The notes below the pieces were generated by a model. That model worked only from the letters and a program-made list of their open reading frames with translations. It ran no database searches and had not been told where the DNA came from. From assembly GCF_964213995.1 (NCBI RefSeq), contig NC_135825.1:12648001-12712000 (forward strand): DNA of 64,000 bases, given 5' to 3'. The DNA comes from Mustelus asterias (taxonomy: Eukaryota). A program made the translations under genes and the position numbers. Each line of letters opens with the position of its first letter. Positions within the stretch are counted from its first letter, which is position 1. Positions 15,101 to 53,300 of this stretch are shown here, in pieces.

Positions 15101-18100
15101 CTCCCAGCCATTATGGCCCTCTTGGAAGAGTTAGCAGCCATGACAGGATTTGCATCCAGTGCAAAATCGCCCCCTGGTTCTCACGTTGAATAATTTTCCT
15201 GATGAAGTGACTGTGCTGAGGAATTTCATCTTCTTAGACTCTGAGGACAACTTCCTATCTCACCAATTCCATTTGCCCCCAGCAGCCATTGGTGACCTAA
15301 CTTAACTGAATGGTCAACGAATGCTGAATAATGGGTGGACTGGACTAAGATTACTCAAACACAAACCTTTTGAGTATCATTTTAAATGTATTCCTTCCAG
15401 GGATGTGAATGTTGCTGGCTAGCGCAGCATTTGTTGCCCATTCCTAACTACCCTTGTGAAGGTGTTGGGGTCAGCGGGGGGATGGTGATGAACCACCTTC
15501 TTGAATCACTGCGGTATGTTTGGTGTAAGTATACCCACAATGCTGTTAGGGAGGGAGTTCCAGGCTCTAGACCCAGTGACAATGAAGGGATGGCAATATG
15601 TTTCCAAGTCAGGATGGCATGTGGCTTGGAGGAGGGGTTTCATATGGTGGTTTTCCCATGCATCTGCTGCTCTTGTCCTTCTAGGTGGTAGAGGTCACAG
15701 GGTTGGAAGTTGCTGTCGCAGGAGCCTTGGTGATTTCCTGCAGGGCATCTTGTAGGTGGTACACACTGATGGCACTTGCATGGGTGGTAGAGGGAGTGAA
15801 CGTTTAAGGTGGTGAATGGGGTGCCAATCAAGCAGGTTGTCTTGCCCTGAATGTATCAAGTTCCTCAAATATTGTGGACTTGTGCCTTGTAGATGCTGGA
15901 CTGACAGTTACTCACCTCAGCATTCCCAACCACTAGCCTACTCTTGTAACCACAATATTCATGTGACTGGTCCAGTTCAGTTCTGGATTTTGAGAGTGTT
16001 TATAGTTGATAGTATACAAGTAAAAGAGATCATCTTTCAATTAGTTTGAGTTGGATTCAAGAACAGTTTCATAAATTAAAACACATTTTTCTTTCATACA
16101 ACCTCCCAGTCCTGTACGGTTGGTTTACACAATGTCTTCACAGGAGCATTATCAAGCACAATTTGGCTTTGATATAAGCAAATATTTGGCCAAAATAAGC
16201 ATCTTAAAGGTGTAAAGGGAGGTAGAGAGACAGAGAGCTGTATGGAGGGAATTCCGGAGCTTGGGGCACAGGCAGCCCATGGCCACCAGTGGGGGAGCAA
16301 TTAAAATGAGGGATGCTCAGAGGCCAGATTCTTAGAAATGCAGATATCTTGGAAGGTTCAAAGAATCATAGAATCCCTACAGTGCAGAAGGAGGCCATTC
16401 GGTCCATCAAGTCTGCACTGACTCTCCGAAAAAGCATCTTACCCAGGCCCACCCCCTGCCCTAACTCTGCACCCCCGTGCATTTACCATGGCCAATCCAC
16501 CTAACCCGCACATCTTTGAATACTAAGAGACAATTTAGTATGGCCAATCCACCTAAGCTACACATCTTGGGACATTAAGGGACAATTTAGCATGGCCAAT
16601 CCACCTAAGCTACACATCTTGGGACATTAAGGGACAATTTAGTATGGCCAATCCACCTAACCTACACATCTTGGGACATTAAGGGACAATTTAGCATGAC
16701 CAATCCACCTAACCTACACATCTTGGGACATTGAGGGACAATTTAGCATGGCCAATCCACCTAACTCACTCATTTTTGGACACCAAGGGACAATTTGGCA
16801 TGGCCAATCCACCTAACGTACACATCTTTGGACATTAAAGGACAAATTAGCATGGCAAATCCACCTAAACTGCATATCTTTGGACTGTGGGAGGAAACCT
16901 GAGCACCCGGAGGAAACCCACGCAGACACGGGGGAGAATGTGCAAACTGCCCGCAGACAGTCTCCCAAGGCGGGAATCGAACCCTCGTGCTTTGAGGCAG
17001 CAGTGCTAACCACTGTGCCACCATGCCGCCTTTGTAGGGTTTGAGGAGATACTGAGACATTGAGGCAGGAGGTCATGGGGAAATTTGAAAACAAGGATGG
17101 GCATTGAAAGAGAAACCAGAAAAAAAAATTAAATGGCAGAATTGAATTTTTGGAAAATGCAGATGTTAATTTATATTTACTGCATGTTTAACCAACAGCT
17201 TTAGGGAAATGGAACCTTCGTACCACACTTTTCGTGCAGTATTTTGCACACCAACCACATTTCTAGAACTGAAATAATTGAATGTTCTCGCCCAAAACCA
17301 CTTGTAATCTTTACCATAACTCTGCTCAGCAGCACCTCATCACAGTTTGCAATGGCGAGACCATTCTGTGGGACACATGTTGATTGAGGTGCATTTCTCT
17401 GCATTTCAGTGTCATCCAACATTTCTGTAACGAGTACTATCCTCCACATGACTGAGGGGTGACCAAGTGCGAGTCAGACTGGGAGTCTTTGCTACTCTAT
17501 CTAAGCGACAAAGTAATAAGCTCTTGATTGTTTTATGAATGCAAAAGGAAGACAGTTTTGGGGTTTGCTCGCTATTTATCAGAGTTAGTTAAAGACGGTG
17601 CAGTCAATACTGGTTAGGCTGATTGGCCATGCTAAATTGACCCTAGTGTCAGGGGGATTTGCAGGGTAAATATGTGGGGTTACGGGAATAGGGCCTGGAT
17701 GGGATTGTGGTCGGTACAGATTCAATGGTCCGAATGGCCTCCTTCTGTACTGTTGGGATTCTATGATAATATACACTCAGTTTTCATGTTGTGCCTGTGA
17801 TGGGGGTGCTGAACTTAAGAACATAGGAATTGCTAGAAAAAAAAGGAATGACTGAAACCCACCTAGCTTGCCTTCTACCATCCTGGCCATCACACGATAT
17901 AATGATAATAGAGTTGTTGATTAATAGAATCATAGAATCCCTTCAGTGCAGAGAGAGGCCATTCAGCCCACACCGACAACAATCCCACCCAGGCCTTATC
18001 CCCGTAAACCTGTTAGTTCTCCTGATTCTAAGGGGCAATTTAGCATGGCCAATCCACTTAACCCACGCATCTTCAAAGTGTGGGAGAAAACTGGAGCACC

Positions 18101-21100: not shown

Positions 21101-24100
21101 TATCAAATATCAGATGATCCCTTTGCAAATAGAACTGCCATTATTAAATTAGCTGATGAATAATCACGTGCAGAACTGTTCGCAATTTGTCGACTTGTCA
21201 CCCATTTCAGAGCGAGATTCAATTAAAACAATTGAATCAGGCAATTCCAAAGAAAACAAAAAGGGATTCTGTTTACGCAGCGTCCTCTGTACCCTGATAC
21301 TCCGAGGTACTTCACACTCAAGGCATGGTGGCACGGCGGTTAGCACTGCTGCCTCACAGCACCAGGGACCCGGGTCCAATTCCAGCCTCGGGTGATTGCG
21401 TGGAGTCTGCAGGTTCTCCCTGCGTCTGTATGTGCTCCCTCCGGGTGCGCCAGCTCCTTCCCACACTCCAAAGGTGTGCAAATTAGATGGATTGGCCATG
21501 CTAAATTGCCCCTCAGTGTCCAAAGATGTGTAGACTTGGGGATTAGCAGTGGGGTTGCGGGGATAGGGCCTGGGTGAGTAACCCTGTCACAGAGTTGGTG
21601 CAGACTTGATGGGCTGAATGACCTCCTTCTGCACCATAGATTCACTGATTCAATGTATTTCTTCTTTAATATTGCTGAGAAAAGAGACATGCTGTTGAAG
21701 TTTTTCATCTTGTACTCATCAGGACAGATTCACAAGAATAACTAATCTCAAAGAGAACAACAATTTGTGCTGCATGGAGAAGAGGGTGCTGATTGGTTGG
21801 CAAGTGAGTTCTTGCAAATCTTTCCATGATGAATACAAAGCAAAAAGTTTCGCCAGCATCTCTTTATTCAGCAATACTCAGCGCTATCAAGTGACAACTT
21901 CTTAAATGTTATGATTATTGATAAATAGAACAGGAAGCATGCTTAACAAGGCCCTACGTACACCAAAACCAATAAATGACCAGATAATGAGGACAATGTC
22001 CACAATATTAATACAAGCTCATGCAAATCTCACCAGGATGGGAACCTCTTGCTGACACTCAGGGTTCAGCCTTTTGAGGCTAATTACTCACAGCTCCAGA
22101 TGAAGATCAGGAGCAGAATTAGGCCACTCAGCCCATCGAGTCTGCTCCTCCATTCAATCATGGCTGATATTTCTCTCATCACCATTTTCCTGCCTTGTTC
22201 CCTAACCCCTGATCCCTTTATTAATCAAGTTCAAAGGGAAGCTACAGCATAATATGTCAGATATTCTTCCAAATATCAGAAAGGCTCAAAAAAATGCATC
22301 TTAATCGATTGGCAGCATTTGCCGAGGCAAAAATGGGAGAGGACTGAAGCATGGTGGGGATAAATGTGAGAATAGGTCATCCAATTTAACTGCGGATAAG
22401 TGGTAGAATCATCCAGTGGGCGGCACAGTGACACAGTGGTTAGCACTGCTGCCTCACAGTGCCAGGGACCCGGGTCCAATTCCAGCCTCGGGTGATTGCG
22501 TAAAGTCTGCAGGTTCTCCCTGTGTCTGTATGTGTTCCCTCCGGGTGTGTCAGCTTTTTCCCACACTCCAAAGGTAAGCAAATTAGATGGATTGGCCATG
22601 CTAAATTGCCCCTCAGTGTCCAAAGATGTGTAGACTTGGGGATTAGCAGTGGGGTTGCGGGGATAGGGCCTGGGTGAGTAACCCTGTCACAGAGTTGGTG
22701 CAGACTTGATGGGCTGAATGACCCTCTTCTGCATCATAGATTCACTGATTCAATGAATTACTTCTTAAATATTGCTGAGAAAAGAGACATGCTGTTGAAG
22801 TTTTTCATCTTGTACTCATCAGGACAGATTCACAAGAATAACTAATCTCAAAGAGAACAACAATTTGTGCTGCATGGAGAAGAGGGTGCTGTTTGGTTGG
22901 CAAGTGGGATCTTGCAAATCTTTCCATGATGAATACAAAGCAAAACGTTTCGACAGCATCTCTTTATTCAGCAATACTCAGCGCTACCAAGTGACAACTT
23001 CTTAAGTGTTATCATTATTGATAAATAGGACAGGGAGCATGCTTAACAAGATCCTGCACACACCCAAAACCAATAAATGACCAGATAATGGGGACAATGT
23101 CCACAATATTAATATAAGCTCATGCAAATTTCACCAGAGTGGGAACCTCTTGCTGACACTCAGGGCTCAGCCTTTTGAGGCTATTTACTCACAGCTCCAG
23201 GTGAAGATCTGGAGCAGAATTAGGCCACTCAGCCCATCGAGTCTGCTCCTCCATTCAATCATGGCTGATATTTCTCTCATCACCATTTTCCTGCCTTTTC
23301 CCCATAACCCCTGATCCCTTTATTAATCAAGTTCAAAGGGAAGCTACAGCATAGTATGTCAAATATTCTTCCAAATATCAGAAAGGCTCAAAAAAATGCA
23401 TCTTAATCGATTGGCAGCAGTTGCTGAGCAAAAGTGGGAGAGGACTGAAGCATGGTGGGGATAAATGTGAGAATAGGTGATCCAATTTAACTGCGGATAA
23501 GTGGTAGAATCATCCAGTGGGCGGCACGATGGCACAGTGGTTAGCACTGCTGCCTCACGGCGCCAGGGACCCGGGTTCAAATCCAGCTTCAGGTCACTGT
23601 CTGTGCGGAATTTGCACATTCTCCCCGTGTCTGCGTGGGTTTCCTCCGGGTGCTCCGGTTTCCTCCCACAGTCCAAAGATGTGAGGTTTACGTTGATTGG
23701 CCATGCTAAATTGATCCTAATGTCAGGGGGACTAGCAGGGTAAATATGTGGGGTTGCAAGAGTGGGGCCTGGGTGGGATTGTGGTCGGTGCAGACTCAAT
23801 GGGCCGAATAGCCTCCTTCTGGACTGTAGGGATTCTATGATTCTATGATCCATGCTGGATTCCCTATTCTACGTCTACCAGTATGAGATGACTGTATGAG
23901 GTAGTTGTGAGAACAGCACAGCTATTTTACATTCCATGGCAGACTTGTTATGAGTCAGAGTTATGCTGTAAGAATCTGGGAGTAGTTTAGGTCTGTAATA
24001 AAAGTGAAAGCTGCAACATAAGTTATGAGAAGCTTGTATGTTGCAAGGTCCATATTTTCATGTTTTTTGGGGACATACTGCCTTTTATAGAAGATATCAG

Positions 24101-27100: not shown

Positions 27101-28974
27101 TAGTGGAAGATTCACCCTCCACCTGGCGAGAGTGTTCAGCTGTGCGATTCTTCCCCTTGTTTCTGGCCTCTACCTATTGCAGAAGCATCCAAGGCCCAAT
27201 CAGAATTTTGGGGCCCAGGTTTTTTGTTGGTTGGAGACCCACTTTGACGCTCAGATACATGACCCTGTAATCTAGGAGGCCAGACCAATTACTGATCAAA
27301 TTTTACACATCAGACTGTGAAAGTGGACTGCCAATAGTTTACTTCATAAAGTATAATCCCCTTACAGTGCAGAAGTAGGCCATTCAGCCCATTGAGCATG
27401 CCAAACCCTATCCCCATAACCCCACGTATTTACCCTGCTGATCCACCCCCTCCCCCCCCACCCCCCCCCCAACCTACACAGCTTGGGGCACTAAGGCGCA
27501 ACTTTAGCATGGCCAATGAACCTTATCCGCACATCTTTGGACTGTGGGAGGAAACCGGAGCACCCGGAGGAAACCCACGCAGACACGGGGAGAATGTGCA
27601 AACCCCACACACAGTCACCCAAGACCGGAATTGAAGACGGGTCCCTGGCACTGTGAGGCAGCAGTGCTAACCACTGTGCCACCATAAGTTCATAAGTTCA
27701 TAAGATATAGGATCAGGATTAGGCCATTCAGCCCATCGAGTCTGCTCCGCCATTCGATCATGGCTGATATGCTCCTCATCCCCATTTTCCTGCCTTCTCC
27801 CCATAACCTTTCAACCCATCACCAATTAAAAATCTGTCTAACTCCTCCATAAATTTTCTCACTGTCCCAGCATCCACCGCACTTTGGGGTAGCGAATTCC
27901 ACAGATTCACAACCCTTTGGGAGAAGTAGTTTCTCCTCAACTCTGTTTTAAATTTGCTACCCCTTATCCTAAGACTATGACCTCTCGTCCTAGACTGCCC
28001 CACCAGCAGAAGCATCCACTCCACGTCTACTTTATCCATACCTTTGATCATCTTGTAAACCTCAACTTGATCTCCCCTCATTCTTCTAAATTCCAGAGAG
28101 TATAGGCCTAAACTGTTCAATCTCTCTTCATACGACAAACCCCTCATCCATGCCGCCGTCACAGTGTTGCTAAAATATGGCTGAACTATTTTCCATAACC
28201 CAAGTTACCAATTAACTCAAGCAGTTGTATTTACTGAGGGGAATTCCCGACTGTCCATGCCGGCTGGATTCTCCAGTCCCGCTGGCAGCAATGGGATTTC
28301 CCCCGTGGGGGAAATCCCATTGACAGCAGCGGGACCAGAGAATCCCATCACTAGCGAACAGCACATCACCTTCCACCCCCAAGAAACACACGGATGGGAG
28401 GCCAGAGAATTCCCTCCAATACCAATTCACTGCCTATTTATTATAGTAAGTAGTCTCACAACACCAGGTTAAAGTCCAACAGGTTTATTTGGTAGCACGA
28501 GCGTTCGGAGCGCTGCCCCTTCATCAGGTGAGTGTCTGATAAAGGAGCAGCTCTCGTGCTACCAAATAAGCCTGTTGGACTTTAACCTGGTGTTGTGAGA
28601 CTACTTATTGTGCCCACCCCAGTCCAACGCCGGCATCTCCACATCGCATTTATTATAGAGCTTTGAAATATGTTTATTTTCCCAAGTAAAACATTACCTT
28701 AAGTTTCATTTTTGTAATTCAATGATGGATTGACTCATTGCTTCAATGCCTTCAGTCACACTCTCACATTCTTTATCTTCAGCTGTCCAAAGAGTTGGAA
28801 GAAGGAGTTACTTACGCCACTGTGACAATTCAGCCCAATAATCACCCTCAGGAGGACTCTGCTGCTTATGATAATGTGAAACCTTCCAATAGTCAGGAAG
28901 CAATCAAGCCGCCAGTTAACGAACCTCCTGCTTCGGAACCAACGGAATATTCCACAGTTGTGTTCAAAAAGTAA
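6078..28974 (+). CDS. Gene 1: complete six-exon CD300/CMRF35-like (pIgR-like family) single-Ig-V inhibitory receptor, 253 aa. Join 6078-6117,13716-14051,14504-14540,19581-19681,26822-26877,28783-28974
   Basis: All introns are GT-AG with phases 1,1,2,1,0. The exons sum to 762 nt, an open frame ending in TAA. Product: MGSTLLLSIAFLS-VTYASITGPSEK...CRF...KYWCRGFYRRSC...DKGWYWCGIERP...-APKPFAKDKERL-RLFLTLGLIFGILTVMLLGLVILVIRKIRKHKYN-DNGEKEATIENSVPKSNSV-LSKELEEGVTYATV...AYDNV...TEYSTVVFKK*. Confidence 0.85.
6168..6620 (+). mobile_element. CR1-like LINE 3' fragment
   Basis: LSYEERLDRLGLFSLE...TRGH motifs and attctatg tail. Confidence 0.85.
7253..7580 (+). mobile_element. HE1-type V-SINE, full length
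   Basis: Head, V core and tail present. Confidence 0.88.
8376..8650 (-). mobile_element. V-SINE, alternative-tail subfamily
   Basis: Same head and core, tail ...ttgtgacactaataaataaac. Confidence 0.8.
8822..9146 (-). mobile_element. HE1-type V-SINE
   Basis: Head and tail recognisable. Confidence 0.8.
9248..9360 (+). mobile_element. RTE-like LINE 3' end remnant
   Basis: Translates as CPTCGRVCRSHTGLISHQK, the C2H2-like C-terminus typical of RTE-clade ORF2. Confidence 0.5.
10150..12090 (+). mobile_element. Old CR1 fragment interrupted by a younger CR1 3' fragment (about 10510-11456)
   Basis: KFADDTK, LYKALVRPHLEYCEQFW and LGLYSLEFRR motifs. The degenerate older copy resumes at about 11457. 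Confidence 0.8.
12437..12752 (+). mobile_element. V-SINE, alternative-tail subfamily, full length
   Basis: Head, V core, then attctccctcagt...ggagtgtggcgactaggggattttcac...ttgtggcactaataaataa. Confidence 0.85.
13186..13480 (+). mobile_element. HE1-type V-SINE
   Basis: Head, core and tail. Confidence 0.85.
13716..14051 (+). CDS. Gene 1 exon 2, Ig V-type domain with four cysteines (CD300/pIgR type)
   Basis: Acceptor ttttcacacttacag|, donor CAAG|gtaggg, 336 nt, phase 1-1. Motifs C..KYWCRG.....C and D.GWYWCGI. Confidence 0.95.
14237..14369. mobile_element. Harbinger-like MITE (related copies at 24730-24936, 28261-28417, 32070-32197, 36076-36212, 46201-46329, 47838-47962, 49831-49998, 50001-50125, 60223-60351, 61635-61820)
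   Basis: Terminal inverted repeats GGGYGGRATTYTCC...GGARAATYCCRCCC around 120-200 bp bodies. Several share an internal ttgacct/aggtcaa motif. Superfamily inferred from the GGG/GGC termini. Confidence 0.55.
14504..14540 (+). CDS. Gene 1 exon 3, short stalk (APKPFAKDKERL)
   Basis: Acceptor tttttatacttcatttcgaatag|, donor TAAG|gtaaat. The 37-nt phase 1-2 exon bridges exon 2 to the TM exon exactly. Confidence 0.7.
15380..15990 (-). mobile_element. 3' fragment of a second CR1/L2-like LINE family (tail ...gggatgggcaataaatgctggcc)
   Basis: Same tail seen at 14640-14840, 19370-19450 and on the second tRNA-SINE family. Confidence 0.55.
16362..17030 (-). mobile_element. HE1-type V-SINE with an internal 52-bp tandem expansion
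   Basis: Head 16960-17030, tail 16362-16480, array between them. Confidence 0.85.
16487..16882. repeat. 52-bp tandem repeat, about 7.5 copies (catggccaatccacctaacctacacatcttgggacattaagggacaatttag)
   Basis: Unit starts at 16487, 16539, 16591, 16643, ~16694, ~16747, 16799, 16851. Confidence 0.9.
17925..18230 (-). mobile_element. HE1-type V-SINE
   Basis: Head, core and tail. Confidence 0.85.
18427..18725 (+). mobile_element. V-SINE, alternative-tail subfamily
   Basis: Same structure as 12437-12752. Confidence 0.85.
19581..19681 (+). CDS. Gene 1 exon 4, transmembrane helix and basic stop-transfer (LFLTLGLIFGILTVMLLGLVILVI-RKIRKHKYN)
   Basis: Acceptor cgcccag|, donor AACG|gtaagc, phase 2-1. 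Not in the ORF track in this frame. Confidence 0.85.
19810..20660 (-). mobile_element. CR1-like LINE 3' fragment split by a V-SINE (20252-20485)
   Basis: FWSPYLRKDVAALEAVRRRFTRLIPG on -, CR1 tail at 19810-19890. Confidence 0.8.
21670..21876. mobile_element. Palindromic copy of a third PLE-like family (duplicated at 22770-22976)
   Basis: attgctgagaaaagag...cacaagaa and ttcttgcaaatc...ctctttattcagcaata are imperfect inverted arms, each with a hammerhead-like core. Confidence 0.55.
21692..21727 (-). ncRNA. Hammerhead ribozyme-like motif (third PLE family; second copy 22792-22827)
   Basis: - strand cuguc CUGAUGA guacaagau GAAA aacu UC aacag. Confidence 0.4.
23519..23850 (+). mobile_element. HE1-type V-SINE, full length
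   Basis: Head, core and tail. Confidence 0.88.
24287..24630 (-). mobile_element. HE1-type V-SINE, full length
   Basis: Head, core and tail. Confidence 0.88.
25045..25465 (-). mobile_element. CR1-like LINE 3' fragment
   Basis: ORF 25128-25475 LGLFSLERRRLRGDLIEVYK...FFTQRVVGVWN and (ttctatg)n tail. Confidence 0.88.
26207..26503 (+). mobile_element. HE1-type V-SINE with an internal deletion
   Basis: Head and tail intact, part of the V core missing. Confidence 0.85.
26822..26877 (+). CDS. Gene 1 exon 5, membrane-proximal cytoplasmic segment (DNGEKEATIENSVPKSNSV)
   Basis: Long polypyrimidine tract ending ttttccag|, donor TGTG|gtaagg, 56 nt, phase 1-0. Confidence 0.75.
27355..27685 (-). mobile_element. 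HE1-type V-SINE
   Basis: Head, core and tail. Confidence 0.85.
27686..28150 (-). mobile_element. CR1-like LINE 3' fragment
   Basis: ORF 27776-28162 LSYEERLNSLGLYSLEFRR. Confidence 0.88.
28447..28647. mobile_element. Penelope-derived palindromic (inverted pseudo-LTR) insertion
   Basis: Arms are reverse complements, homologous to 51384-52062, 11-bp TSD ATTTATTATAG (28436-28446 / 28648-28658). Confidence 0.8.
28496..28530 (-). ncRNA. Minimal hammerhead ribozyme motif, degenerate (GAAA>GAAC)
   Basis: - strand cac CUGAUGA a ggggc agc gcucc GAAC gc UC gug. Confidence 0.5.
28783..28974 (+). CDS. Gene 1 exon 6 (terminal), cytoplasmic tail with VTYATV (ITIM), AYDNV (YxN) and TEYSTV (ITSM)
   Basis: Acceptor ctttatcttcag|, phase 0, three spaced tyrosine motifs, TAA at 28972-28974. 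Confidence 0.9.
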   Translation: MSKELEEGVTYATVTIQPNNHPQEDSAAYDNVKPSNSQEAIKPPVNEPPASEPTEYSTVVFKK

Positions 28975-34400: not shown

Positions 34401-34958
34401 GTGATGTGGAGATGCCAGTGTTGGACTGGGGTGGACAAGGTGAGAGGTCACATGACACCAGGTTATAGTCCAACAGGTTTTTTTGAAATCACAACTTGGG
34501 GTGGCACGGTGACACAGTGGTTAGCACTGCTGCCTCACAGCACCAGGGACCCGGGTTCGATTCCTGGCTTGGGTCACTGTCTGTGTGGAGTTTGCACATT
34601 CTCCCTGTGTCTGGGCTTCCTCCAGGTACTCTGGTTTCCTCCCACAGTCCAAAGATGTGCAGGTTAGGTTGATTGGCCATGTTAAAATTGCCCCTTAGTG
34701 TCAGGGGGACTTGCTTTGGTAAATGCATGGGGCTGTGGATGTGGGGCCTGTGTGGTATGGTAGTTGATGCAGACTCGATGGGCCGATTGGCCTCCTTCTG
34801 CACTGTATGATTCTATGATTCACAAGTTTTCGGAGCACTGCTCCTTCATCGGGTGAAGGAGCAAGCATTTACCTAATGAAGGAGCAGCACTCCAAAAGTT
34901 TGTGATTTCGAATGAACCTGTTGGACTATACCCTGGTGTCATGTGACCTCTCATCCTC
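34401..34958. mobile_element. Penelope-derived palindromic insertion (related subfamily) split by a V-SINE (34498-34820)
   Basis: gatgtggagatgcc...ggttatagtccaacagg and its inverse at 34870-34958, flanking AGTCCCC duplication. Confidence 0.7.
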
Positions 34959-41391: not shown

Positions 41392-44300
41392 GTAAGGAAG
41401 CAAATGGAATGAGCACAAGTTGGAGATAAGTCATTTTGTTAACTTTCTCTCCAGGTGCTTTCATCCCTTCATATTTAACAGACTGATCAGCGTTCTATGT
41501 GACGGAAGCTGCAATATGGATGTGTCCATAAAGCTTGGTGCCGTTTGATTTTCACAATGGAATGTATTATTAAATTCTGTAGATTTAAATTTTCAATGTG
41601 TTAACGTGGAAGTATCAGCAATATTAGAATATTAACGATTGAGAAGTTATGAGAGTCCAAAGCCTGTTAATTTAATTTAACAAAAGCACCAATACAATTT
41701 TATGAATGCGTTCAGTATGTGTTTGCTTTAAGTCAAAGATTCATTTCCAGAATATTTTCATGTCAGCGTCATTTGTCACTTAATTTTTCGGTGAAAAATC
41801 CATGTGACAATGTTGTTCTGAGTTCACTAAGTAAGCTACAGTTAAATTAAATATATTTTCATGTCACTTTTTAACATTCTCTGCTTTCCAAAATTCCATT
41901 TTCAGTCTCATTATGTAGAGTTTTTGTCCTCCACCGTTGATGACCCAAATTTCCAAGGTATTTGAACGCTGCTGGAGCAGGTAGTGGCACCGTGGTATTG
42001 TCACTGGACTAGCAATCCAGAGACCCAGGGTAATGTTCTGGGGACCCAGGTTCAAATCCCACAGGAGCAGATGGTGGCATTTGAATTCAATAAGAATTTG
42101 GATTTAAAAGTCAAATGATGACCATTGTCGATTGTTGGAAAAACCCATCTGGTTCACTATTGCCCTTTAGGGAAGGATATCTGCCATCCTTACCCAGTCT
42201 GACCTACATGTGACTCCAGATCCACAGCAATGTGGTTGACTTATAAATGTCTCCTCGAGGGTGCATAATAGATGGTGGCCCTGCCAGTGATGCCCACATC
42301 CCATGAACACATAAAAATAAAGGTAAGGGTGGAATTTGGGATAGGGCCTTGTTGCTCCAAATTGTGCTCCATAAGAATAATGTTGATGTTGCTTGTAGAG
42401 TCACAGAGATACACAGCACAGAAGCAGGCCCTTCGGCCCAACTCATCCATGCCAACCAGGTTTCCTAAACTGAACTAGTCCCATTTGTCTGCGTTTGGCC
42501 CATATCCCTCTAAACCTTTCCTGCACATGTACCTGTCCAAAGATCTTTTAAATGTTGTAATTGTACCTGCCTCTACGACCTCCTCTGGCAGCTCATTCTA
42601 TATACGTACCACCCTCTGTGTGAAAAGGTTGCCCCTCAGGTCCCTTTTAAATCTTTCCCCTCTGACCTTAACCTATGACCTCTAGTTTTGGACTCCCTTA
42701 CCCTGGGGAAATGACCTTGGCTATTCACCTGATCTATACCCCTCATGATTTTATAAACCTCTATAAGGTCACCCCTCATCCTCCTACACTCCAGGGAAAA
42801 AAGTTCCAGCCTATCCAACCTCTCTGAATAATTCAAACATTCCTGTCCCAGCCTTGTAAATCCTTTTTGTACCCTTTCCAATTTAATAACATCCTTCCTA
42901 CAGCAGATCGACCAGAATTCTACGCAGTATTCCAAATGTGGCCTTACCAATGTCTTGTGCAGTTGTAACATAACGTCCCAACGCCTGTATTCAATGCTCT
43001 GACCGATGAACCCAAGTATGCCAAACATCTTTTTCACCACCCTGTCTACCTGTGACCTCACTTTCAAGGCACTATTTACCTGCACCCCTAGGTCTCTCTG
43101 TTCGACAACACTCCCCAGGGTCTTACCATTAACTATGTAAGTCCTGCCCTCGTTTGTCTTACCAAAATGCAACACCTCGCATTTATCTGAATTAAACCCT
43201 ATCTGCCATACCTCGGCCCATTGACCCAGTTGATCAAGATCCCATTATAGTCATAGATAACCTTCTTCACTGTCCACTACACCACCAATTTTGGTGTCAT
43301 CTGCAAACTTACTTACCATACCTCCTATATTCTCATAAAAATCGTTGATATAAATGACAAAGAACAGTGGACCTAGCCCGATCCCTGTGGCACACCGCTG
43401 GTCATAAGCCTCCAGTCTGAAAAACAACTATTTACCACCACCCTCTGTCTCCTACCGGCAAGATGTGGAGATGCTGACATTGGACTGGGGTAAGCACAAT
43501 AAGAAGTCTCACAACACCAGGTCAAAGTCCAGCAGGTCCACCTGGCAGCACTAGCCCTCGGAGCCTCAAGCTCCTTCCTCAGGTGAGTCAGGGAACCCTA
43601 CCGGCAAGCCAATTTTGTACCCAATTGGCTAGTTCACCCTGGATCCCATATGATCTAACCTTCATGACCAGTCTACCATGCCATACCTTGTTGAAGGCCT
43701 TGCTAAAGTCTATAGAAACAACGTCTACCGCACTGCCTCATCTTTTTTCTTGGTCACCCCTTCAAAGAACTCTATCAAATTTGTAAGACGCGATTTCCCG
43801 CACACAAAGCCGTGTTCACTATCCCTAATCAGTCCTTGCCTTTCCAAATGCAGGTAAATCCTGCCTCTCAGAATCCCCTCCAACAACTTACCCACCACTG
43901 AAAATAGTCTCACCGGCCTGCAGTTCCATGGCTTTTCCCTGCAGCCTTTCTTAAGTAACGGCACAACATTTGCCTCCCTTCAGTCTTCCGGCACTTCATC
44001 CGTGATTGTCAATGATACAAATATCTCTGCCAGGGGGCCCCACAACTTCTTCCCTAGCTTCCCACAATGTCCTGGGATACACCAGATCAGGTGCCAGGGT
44101 TTTACCTACCTTTATGCATTTTAAGACCTCCAGCACCTCCTCTTCTATAATGTGGACACTTTTCAAGACATAACTACTTACTTCCCTGAGTTCCCTAGCT
44201 TGCATGGCTCTCTCCACGGTAAATACTGATGAAAAATATTCATTTAGAATCTCACCCAGCTCCTGTGGCTTCACACATAGATGACTTTGTTGATCTGGCA

Positions 44301-50300: not shown

Positions 50301-53300
50301 CTTTGGGGAATTTCCATAATGCTGATTTGGGGATGGGATTGGCCAGCAACATCGACTCAATTGCTCGCAACAGGTCAAGTTATGATCTCTGGAATGAAGA
50401 GTTGGTCGTATGAGGAACAGTTGAGGACTCTGGGTCCGTACTCATTGAACTTTAGAAGGATGAGAGGGGACTTACAGGAAACTTACAGGATACTGCGAGG
50501 CCTGGATAGAGTGGATGTGGAGAGGATGTTTCCACTAGTGGGAAAAACTAGAACCAGAGGGCACAACCTCAGGCTAAAGGGATGATCCTTCAAAACAGAG
50601 ATGAGGAGGAATTTCTTCAGCCAGAGAGTGGTGGATCTGTCGAACTCTTTGCCGCAGAAGGCTTTGGAAGCCAGGTCATTGAGTGTATTTAAGACCGAGA
50701 TAGATAGGTTCTTGATTAATAAGAGGATTGGGGGTTATGGGGAAAAGGCAGGAAAATGGGGATGAGAAAAATATCAGCCATGATTGAATGACGAAGCAGA
50801 CTCGATGGACCGAGTGGCCTAATTCTGCTCCTATGTCTTATGGTGTTATGATTATACATGGTCAGTGGAATTACCCATTCAGCCGATTTGTTTCCTCCTT
50901 AGCCTTCGAGGCTTCCTTCAAGCTCGTAGTCCTGACATAACCCATTGTTTTCCACTCTAACAGGTTCACACGGAGTATTGGGACCAGTGGAGGTGAATGG
51001 AAAATTAGGAGGGTCCATTACCGTCAACTGTAAATACAACATTCCGGTGAACAGGAATTCAGAGAAGTATTGGTGTCGGGGAGGCCGAAGATTTTCATGC
51101 ACAGTGTTAGCAGGCACACAGAGAAGACAGCAGGAAAGATACAACATTGTGGACAACCAAACCAGTGGAATATTTTCGGTGACAATGAGGCAATTGTCAC
51201 TGGAGGATATTGGATGGTATTGGTGTGGGATAGCAAGGCTGGGAAACGATGAAATGGCTTCTGTCAAATTGAATGTTCTGGAAGGTAAGCCCAATAATTA
51301 ATCAGAATCGATTGACTTCGAATACAATGGTAGCATTTCAATAAATGGACTGCTTCCCGTCCTGGCTGTTCTATAGAATAGAAGTGGAGATGCCGGCGTT
51401 GGGGTAAACACAGTAAGAAGTCTCACAACACCAGGTTAAAGTTCAACAGGTTTATTTGGTAGCAAAAGCCACTAGCTTTCAGAGCGCTGCCCCGTTGTCA
51501 GGTAAGCGGGATTCTGTTTACAAACAGGGCATATAAAGACACAAACTCAATTTACAAAATAATGGTTGGAATGCGAGTCTTTACAGGTAATCAAGTCTTA
51601 AAGGTACAGACAATGTGAGTGGAGAGAGCATTAAGCACAGGTTAAAGAGATGTGTATTGTCTCCAGACCGGACGGTTAGTGAGATTTTGCAAGCCCAGGC
51701 AAGTCGTGGGGGTTACAGATAGTGTGACATGAACCCAAGATCCCGGTTGAGGCCGTCCTCATGTGTGCGGAACTTGGCTATCAGTTTCTGCTCAGCGACT
51801 CTGCGTTGTCATGTGTCATGAAGGCCGCTTTTCTTTTTAGAACGCTCTCTCCACTCTCATTGTCTGTACCTTTAAGACTTGAGTACCTGTAAAGACTCGC
51901 ATTCCGACCATTATTGTGTAAATTGAGTTTGTGTCATTATATGCCCTGTTTGTGAACAGAACTCCCACTTACCTGACAAAGGGGCAGCGCTCCGAAAGCT
52001 AGTGGCTTTTGCTACCAAATAAACCTGTTGGACTTTAACCTCGTGTTGTGAGACTTCTTACAATAGAATAGAATCTATAGAATCCCTCCAGTGCAGAAGA
52101 AGGTCATTCGGCCCATCAAGTCTGTACCGACCACAATCCTACCCAGGCCCCATTCCCGTAAACCACGCATTTACCCTCTAATCCCCCTGACACTAAGGGG
52201 CAATTTAGCATAGCCAATCCACTTTCCAGACTCGAAACAAAGAACAAAGAAAATTACAGCACAGGAACAGGCCCTTCGGCCCTCCAAGTCTGCACCGACC
52301 ATGCTGCCCGACTGAACTAAAACCCCCTACCCTTCCGGGGACCGTATCCCTCTATTCCCATCCTATTCATGTACTTGTCCAGGCGCCCCTTAAAACTCAC
52401 TATCGTATCTGCTTCCACTACCTCCCCCAGCAACGGGTTCCAGGCACCCACCACCCTTTGGGTAAAAAACTTCCACGTACATCTCCTTTAAACCTTGCCC
52501 CTCGTACATTAAACCTGTGCCCCCCAGTAATTGACTCTTCCACCTTGGGAAAAAGCTTCTGACTGTCCACTCTGTCCATGCCCCTCATAATCTTGCAGAC
52601 TTCTATGAGGTTGCCCCTCAACCTCCGTCCTTCCAGTGAGAAACATTAACTCTATTTTCTCACTACACAGATGCTGCTGGATCTGTCGCATTTCTCCAGC
52701 ATTTTCTGTTTTTGTTTCAGATTCCATCATTCGCAGTGTTTTGCTTATAGTTTCGTTCTTTCAGGTGCAAAGGGCTGAACGAACATCTATAAATTGCCTT
52801 GACTCTTGTGATATTTGTCACTCTGTTTTACCAGCATGTACTTCCATGGCCTTCAGCAATGATGTATTGTCCTTTATTCTTGCAGCTAGCTTACCCAACC
52901 TCAGACATGTGCACGGGACTTTAGGAGAAGCTGTCACGTTAAAGTGTCAGTATCAAGTACCATATTACCGACACCATGAGAAGTACTTGTGCAAGGGGTC
53001 AGAGAGGAAGTCATGCATTGTGATTGCCAGAACTCAAAAGCAGAATGCAAACAGCGATGGAAGGATAATTACTATGGATAACCGGACCAGTGGAGTGTTT
53101 GCTGTCACCTTGACGGAACTATCCATGGAGGATGCGGGGCTTTACTGGTGTGGAATAACAATCATCGGTTACGACAATATGGTTCCCTTGCAACTGAATA
53201 TTTTTGAACGTAAGACAAATGTTTACTTCTTCCTAATAAGCAGTTCCCATATACTGAAACAAAATGTTAAATGTTCTGCTATGAGGGACTGTTGCAACAC

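Follow-up and report, generated by a model that had tools for sequence, protein, structure and literature searches.

The window analysed here is a 64,000-nucleotide stretch of DNA (C25:12,648,001-12,712,000) that holds, at positions 43463-43596, a 134-bp insertion lying inside a LINE and bounded on both sides by a 12-bp target-site duplication. It corresponds to the 3′ end of a minus-strand Penelope-like element (PLE), and its pseudo-LTR (pLTR) carries a cluster of sense-strand A>G changes (Table 1). These changes alter both the poly(A)-signal-like hexamer and the GAAA box of the hammerhead, as the preliminary description of the window had claimed. The candidate hammerhead comprises a 3-bp helix I, a CUGANGA box, an extra A, helix II, the GAAA box, a palindromic helix III and a UA cleavage site; read by eye against the available text of PMC4209133, A14 (43557) and A15.1 (43556) are changed to G, and N7 (43578) is changed too. 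The minimal-hammerhead register rules against 43546 as the cleavage base, and this assignment was therefore dropped. An Rfam search of the window returned no hammerhead match at E values up to 1, and folding of the 134-bp copy recovered helix II only (z -0.5). Changes in the hammerhead core are known to abolish cleavage. The AATAAA hexamer and the hammerhead core of this copy are predicted to be non-functional, and 5′ truncation by itself already leaves the copy non-autonomous.

Table 1. Features of the edited PLE copy, related fold-backs in the window and unedited parent loci elsewhere
Feature	Position	Strand	Basis or remark
Target-site duplication, left copy	43451..43462		direct repeat, identical to 43597-43608
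PLE 3′ tail extension, unedited (0/7 As)	43463..43499	-	comparison with relatives; tail as in the available text of PMC11167929
pLTR body, 5′-truncated, with 8 sense-strand A>G	43500..43588	-	29-relative column comparison and nearest-neighbour yardstick
Eight edited positions	43523, 43538, 43539, 43541, 43542, 43556, 43557, 43578	-	29-relative column comparison
AATAAA hexamer, putative poly(A) signal; 4/5 As changed to G here	43537..43542	-	sequence
Minimal hammerhead motif, candidate	43549..43585	-	eye reading and helix II fold; minimal-hammerhead features from the available text of PMC4209133
5′-junction bases (8), unlike the PLE family	43589..43596		family comparison
Target-site duplication, right copy	43597..43608		exact repeat; run X4 contig crosses the junction with 0 differences
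Fold-back PLE sister, head-to-head, unedited; locus type yielding hairpin RNA	28445..28645		sequence comparison
Fold-back PLE copy, unedited; long arm encodes the end of a GIY-YIG domain	51380..52061		sequence comparison, translation
Unedited parents of three sets	C5:108.21 Mb, C22:37.73 Mb, C14:105.19 Mb		

Longer relatives encode a reverse transcriptase followed by a GIY-YIG domain in one frame that runs into the same pLTR; one of them, L089, gave RVT_1 (E 3.6e-6) and then GIY-YIG (E 3.7e-4), both just under the Pfam cut-offs. The family also displays other PLE hallmarks, namely a pLTR with a candidate minimal hammerhead (read by eye; Rfam without match), an optional tail and an inverted, 5′-truncated copy. 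Its translations contain a CX4CxxC linker; a CX2-5CxxC linker between reverse transcriptase and endonuclease is given as a trait of the Neptune clade in the consulted text of PMC8557442, and since Nematis shares it, it does not single out Neptune. Known C-terminal GIY-YIG PLEs, as far as the available parts of PMC8557442, PMC4209133, PMC11167929 and PMC3846280 describe them, resemble the elements found here in domain order, in a pLTR with a minimal hammerhead, in an optional tail of about 35 bases, in head-to-head inverted arms and in short target-site duplications; unlike here, edited genomic copies are not reported in those parts. On how the inverted arms arise, the consulted text of PMC3846280 does not decide but prefers self-priming with antisense RNA as template, and that of PMC11167929 describes a PLE enzyme that nicks and extends both strands, starting at two sites that bound the tail.

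To establish which differences are private to the 134-bp copy, we scored it column by column against its 29 closest genomic relatives. Seven of the eight T>C sites (on the plus strand) that the preliminary description had listed proved to be private, with T in 29/29 relatives at 43523, 43538, 43539, 43542, 43556 and 43557 and in 27/29 at 43541, whereas 43546 turned out to be a subfamily variant with C in 28/29. The scoring added an eighth private site that had been missed, 43578, where the relatives have T in 22, A in 5 and C in 2 cases (n=29). All eight edits are A>G on the sense strand, as had been proposed, and T>C affects 8/32 scorable Ts, compared with 107/8017 (1.3%) in the 109 unflagged arms that served as background (binomial P = 8e-9). 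The proposed restriction to As with a 5′ U or A also stood: within the pLTR body, 8/13 As after U or A but 0/11 after C or G are changed (Fisher P = 0.0017). The remaining private differences are A>G at 43532, G>A at 43477 and 43499, and G>C at 43589; the change at 43532, which lies on the opposite strand, is unexplained, though within background. For this copy, the marks of an RNA intermediate are the target-site duplication and 5′ truncation only. One tight junction-pattern search returned four loci, none convincing as its parent, and did not find the origin of the eight bases at its 5′ junction. The fold-back locus L138, which has one diagnostic base in common with it, was rejected as parent for want of the matching tailed arm and junction.

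A check for assembly error was negative: in run X4, one contig equals 43508-43587 with 0 differences and a second crosses the right junction, also with 0 differences (runs X1-X4 are contigs, not raw reads). As a separate observation, contigs of X1 and X2 omit the insertion (window 43455-43604) and may stem from an empty allele or from a LINE paralogue closely similar to this one; the longest insertion-skipping contig mismatches 13/80 left-flank bases.

The strand-bias comparison that the preliminary description had suggested, extended to copies throughout the 3.68-Gb genome, revealed a clustered excess of A>G on one strand. Whole-genome searches with a 26-base core of the family gave 162,888 exact, unedited matches, and arms with three forced changes numbered 31 for sense A>G (about 0.4 expected), 10 for antisense A>G, 1 for G>A and 0 for C>T. 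Nineteen overlapping loci were removed, and 172 arms from 88 loci and the window were each scored by comparison with the nearest relatives that carried no flag. Of the 62 arms flagged in this way, 59 were retained; the pooled counts leave out the weakly flagged arms of L069 (4 A>G) and of window 34401-34520 (5 A>G) as well as the duplicate L033. On the inferred RNA strand of the 59 edited arms, A>G reached 863/2467 (35%) and every other change 0.4-3%, with no excess of transversions (A>C 9/2467, A>T 28/2467). At least 48 distinct edited loci were seen, including the first parent set described below. Because 3/16 edited copies found without selection fit the forced pattern, a rough estimate is 165 sense-edited arms, or about 1 in 1,000. 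Clustered sense G>A of the APOBEC type was not found: the 134-bp copy has two G>A, and the genome controls gave 1 (G>A) and 0 (C>T). No A>G or T>C bursts appeared in 52 LINE 3′ hits, and 1 of 68 SINE hits showed a T>C excess.

Several neighbouring cases were set apart. A SINE copy at window 21322-21640 has T>C at 10/75 positions, mostly before G or C on the plus strand, which is not an ADAR context; it was rejected and possibly retains ancestral CpG. Window 34401-34520 and 34866-34953 form a fold-back of a more divergent PLE subfamily, and the five A>G in one of its arms were judged to be subfamily divergence. At L037:1619-1888, an insertion has two edited arms with an unedited arm between them, and its non-PLE spacer is partly inverted and appears edited.

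Four edited loci had a unique 3′ flank in common, and a search with this flank returned 26 matches, 19 of them near full length. Two of these, L118 and L119, are unedited parents that form a local duplication on C5 (108.21 and 108.29 Mb); each contains a fold-back PLE whose arms, 541-785 and 1231-1473, are 89% complementary, and after it comes a CR1-type LINE end. The 17 further loci are mostly 5′-truncated, and ten stop at the terminal microsatellite of the CR1-type LINE. Of these 17, which were found by the unique flank alone, every one of the 16 with at least ten As in its arms is edited. The paired arms show A>G at 141/341 and 454/816 As. Outside them the counts are 10/435 (loop together with unpaired arm), 3/136 (tail), 56/6074 (3′ flank) and 4/424 (5′ flank), giving 595/1157 paired As (51%) versus 73/7069 unpaired As (1%). 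The edit patterns of 14 near-complete sense arms differ at 12.1 sites per pair, compared with 11.7 expected for independent molecules, and are nested in 2/91 pairs.

The two longest copies of this set are spliced: they start at the parent's splice acceptor, hold the end of the upstream exon directly next to the last exon, without the 1,707-base GT-AG intron that separates the two in the parent, and one of them has a 158-base 5′ inversion. Since two daughters lack the intron, the source is the last exon of a spliced gene; and since copies of this set end at the CR1-type LINE 3′ end, Penelope's reverse transcriptase is not necessarily the one that mobilized them. In some members the flank differs slightly, and these may derive from an older allele or source. 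The host gene (L118/L119, also L144, L153 and L161) carries the fold-back PLE and CR1-type 3′ end in its 3′ UTR, has at least 17 retrocopies and is likely expressed in the germ line. Its last exon holds an open frame with a weak RanBP2-type zinc finger; a gene name was not obtained, with Atlas hits under 0.9 and the zinc finger below the Pfam cut-off.

Two further parent sets were found, in both of which the parents lie on other chromosomes than the edited copies. The 73-base spacer of L064 matched one other locus, L109 (C14:105.19 Mb), an unedited locus flanked by a 12-base duplication of its own. Relative to L109, the daughter L108 has 33 A>G, all within about 280 bases of one arm, and 6 other substitutions in an alignment of 1,188 bases, with the caveat that the arm corresponding to the sense arm of the parent itself carries no edits in the daughter. 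The structure of the daughter requires an intermediate with a second PLE arm, which was not found. The daughter locus itself (L108/L064, C68:34.58 Mb) is complex, with the 3′ end of one PLE subfamily joined to an arm from another locus, a SINE and flank, and then a fold-back, an arrangement that suggests template switching between RNAs.

In the third set, the loop junction of L103 matched one other locus, the unedited L141, and the daughter runs from a tail-less pLTR end through the loop into the second arm and 1.3 kb of parent flank. Comparison of L141 with L140 placed 44 of 58 T>C in the fold-back arm bins, while 0/21 Ts were changed in the loop bin. A second T>C cluster (8/11) lies at the far end, in non-PLE transduced sequence (L142:2830-2867 against L143:4800-4840), and no inverted partner for it was found in the 10 kb fetched.

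Both inverted arms were changed on the same genomic strand at 17 two-arm loci, as expected if a hairpin RNA was edited on both sides and then copied through. Four other loci (L040, L042, L048 and L058) carry mirror-image sense edits in both arms; outside the search pattern these pairs disagree at 3/21 edited sites, 16 of which come from L040, compared with 68% between loci (700 pairs; P = 6e-7). Both arms of such a new head-to-head insertion are thus likely to come from one edited sense RNA or its cDNA. Mirror pairs were seen at 4/27 sense and 0/10 antisense loci, a difference that is not significant (P = 0.56).

Where the true parent is known, the editing rate by 5′ neighbour was 0.69 for A, 0.61 for U, 0.43 for C and 0.34 for G (U or A versus G, odds ratio 3.8, P = 9e-17), and 18 arms outside the search pattern gave 0.66 for U, 0.60 for A, 0.34 for G and 0.28 for C. 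The bias is moderate, a third of the As after G being changed. By 3′ neighbour the rates were 0.62 for A, 0.59 for G, 0.54 for U and 0.40 for C, with no clear preference for a 3′ G; a preference for 3′ A is described for amphibians and invertebrates in the available part of PMC5625713. Several similar loci with an A_deamin domain occur in the genome, on C24 (41.7, 44.7 and 45.0 Mb), C69 and C544, which suggests duplicated ADAR-, ADAD- or ADAT-type genes or assembly duplicates.

Changes from A to G only, at a rate of about 50%, limited to predicted duplex, on either RNA strand, lowest after G and present in copies that passed through RNA are the established signature of ADAR, whose product reverse transcriptase reads as G. 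From this signature we infer that ADAR was the editor. We consider it highly probable that the 134-bp copy is a retrotransposed piece of a pLTR whose eight sense A>G were introduced by ADAR on a double-stranded RNA hairpin before insertion. This copy has a single arm, in which the unedited tail (0/7 As) is what bears on confinement to duplex, and its duplex origin would follow by analogy with the parent-daughter sets; the editing reading of it is drawn from its own spectrum, sequence context and duplication together with that analogy. More generally, the edited copies are likely inherited DNA records of ADAR acting on hairpin RNAs before reverse transcription.

Three other origins of the changes were weighed. 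Error by the reverse transcriptase, through a skewed dNTP pool or duplex displacement that places dG opposite T or U in bursts, would suit the fact that every edited locus with a known parent is a retrocopy and so passed through reverse transcription, and pool-biased hypermutation is known for retroviral reverse transcriptases. We regard it as very unlikely, because the edits end at duplex borders inside one continuous cDNA (51% in paired arms versus 1% outside), are depleted after a 5′ G and are present in copies with both CR1-type and PLE-type 3′ ends, and because bursts of G>A or C>T are absent. Still less likely is mutagenesis of the DNA in place after insertion, whether by polymerase eta at WA sites, by deamination of adenines within an R-loop or a DNA hairpin, or by conversion with the copy's own edited cDNA. 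The polymerase eta hotspot, an A after A or T, does resemble the observed 5′ bias, and ADARs can edit the DNA of RNA:DNA hybrids in vitro, as stated in the available text of PMC12925331. This explanation is largely refuted by the parents, since their fold-backs could form the same DNA hairpins and are unedited while moved and spliced copies are edited. Edits are also found in single-arm copies unable to fold in place and, in mirror image on opposite DNA strands, in four fold-backs; a transversion excess is absent, and the left host flank of the 134-bp copy (6 T>C, 6 A>G, 5 C>T and 7 G>A) has no T>C excess, in a comparison with five distant relatives only.

The remaining explanation, which attributes the changes to a PLE subfamily rich in G or to faulty assembly or sequencing, seems to us scarcely credible. 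Position 43546 is indeed a subfamily variant, and three of the four runs leave the edited core (43538-43558) uncovered; against this, run X4, the only one to cover it, has the exact bases. A multi-copy subfamily sharing the changes, named in the preliminary description as a case that would speak against editing, was not found: the pattern occurs in no second copy, the best other match is 91% identical, and the five other loci with the same 19-mer have other edits that are unlike those of the 134-bp copy and, one duplicated pair aside, unlike each other's. Edited copies in general differ as independent draws would.

Editing of a hairpin transcript before reverse transcription remains the preferred reading, and the chain proposed in the preliminary description, from hairpin PLE RNA through hyper-editing and reverse transcription to insertion, gained support in that each link was found elsewhere in the genome, as unedited fold-back loci and as retrocopies with A>G nearly confined to arms predicted to pair. 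The PLE would insert as head-to-head inverted repeats, an arrangement observed here and already known, and a read-through or host-gene transcript of such a locus would be predicted to fold into a long hairpin RNA, parents of this kind being present in the genome. Most of the hairpin RNAs are of this read-through or host-gene kind. Of the As in paired regions, about half would then be converted to inosine, least often after G, which fits the pattern observed, with the enzyme deduced from it. A reverse transcriptase, of PLE or CR1 type as the copy ends suggest, would read inosine as G and insert the resulting cDNA, duplicating the target site. Traces of this step are the copies at new loci, their duplications and 5′ truncations, a single 5′ inversion and the loss of an intron. 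In the 134-bp copy, it was probably Penelope's own enzyme, because the tail is intact and the duplication is 12 bp long; it would have started at the unpaired, unedited tail and stopped after 134 bases. We lean, with some reserve, towards a broader interpretation in which the edit scars are barcodes of single RNA molecules that reveal how Penelope integrates, with both arms of a head-to-head insertion copied from one sense RNA or its cDNA, fold-back transcripts in this germ line are nearly always edited before retrotransposition (16/16), and the inverted architecture feeds ADAR and thereby inactivates the ribozyme of the offspring.

The fixation of edits by reverse transcription is already known. 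In the available text of PMC11702581, 3/235 insertions of L1-made processed pseudogenes in cultured human cells were ADAR-edited, with clustered T>C limited to inverted repeats of the 3′ UTR and put into DNA by a LINE reverse transcriptase, as here. Those pseudogenes are experimental and somatic and involve Alu duplexes, whereas the copies described here are natural and inherited and involve a single Penelope fold-back insertion, with at least 48 loci and 16/16 scorable retrocopies of one source edited. Rous-associated and avian leukosis proviruses likewise show about 50% A-to-G change in an inverted-repeat region, fixed via reverse transcription (PMC12925331, available text); they are exogenous retroviruses, whereas the edits described here affect host transcripts and a retrotransposon that is not viral, and unedited parents lie in the genome that holds the copies. 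Massive editing of lizard Penelope RNA (over 40,000 sites) and hyper-editing in elephant shark brain, with upstream G depleted, are described in the consulted part of PMC5625713, which deals with RNA reads only, whereas the edits found here are in genomic DNA. The APOBEC-edited LTR retrotransposons described in the available text of PMC4866542 are also deaminase-made, inherited, hypermutated copies found by sister comparison, but they carry G>A from cytidine deamination of LTR-element cDNA, as opposed to duplex-limited A>G on either RNA strand in PLE and LINE retrocopies. For human L1, restriction by ADAR1 is reported as editing-independent (PMC5224506, consulted text). A literature search, which covered few subscription papers, found no report of inherited ADAR-edited Penelope copies in genomic DNA, of a parent-daughter series or of a germ-line Penelope record with parents.

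Whereas ADAR edits are normally lost together with the RNA, those seen here are inherited, and would provide a record, readable from genome sequence alone, of editing in germ cells or early embryos of what the repeat content suggests is a cartilaginous fish. The 16 independently edited retrocopies of one source approximate past single-molecule editing data on site preferences and duplex borders, and the scars make the origin of Penelope inverted repeats testable in terms of one RNA or two and of which strand. In this way RNA editing would, via retrotransposition, mutate genomic DNA itself, as an A>G analogue of APOBEC editing that screens for G>A miss. At about 1 in 1,000 arms its scale is modest, which indicates a side route and not a shown defence.

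Two minor features of the window were also noted. Within SINE-like sequence, 16481-16885 is a tandem array whose unit measures about 52 bases. A stop-free frame on the plus strand at about 52790-53210 appears, from its translation, to resemble an immunoglobulin V-type exon of a CD300/pIgR-like receptor.
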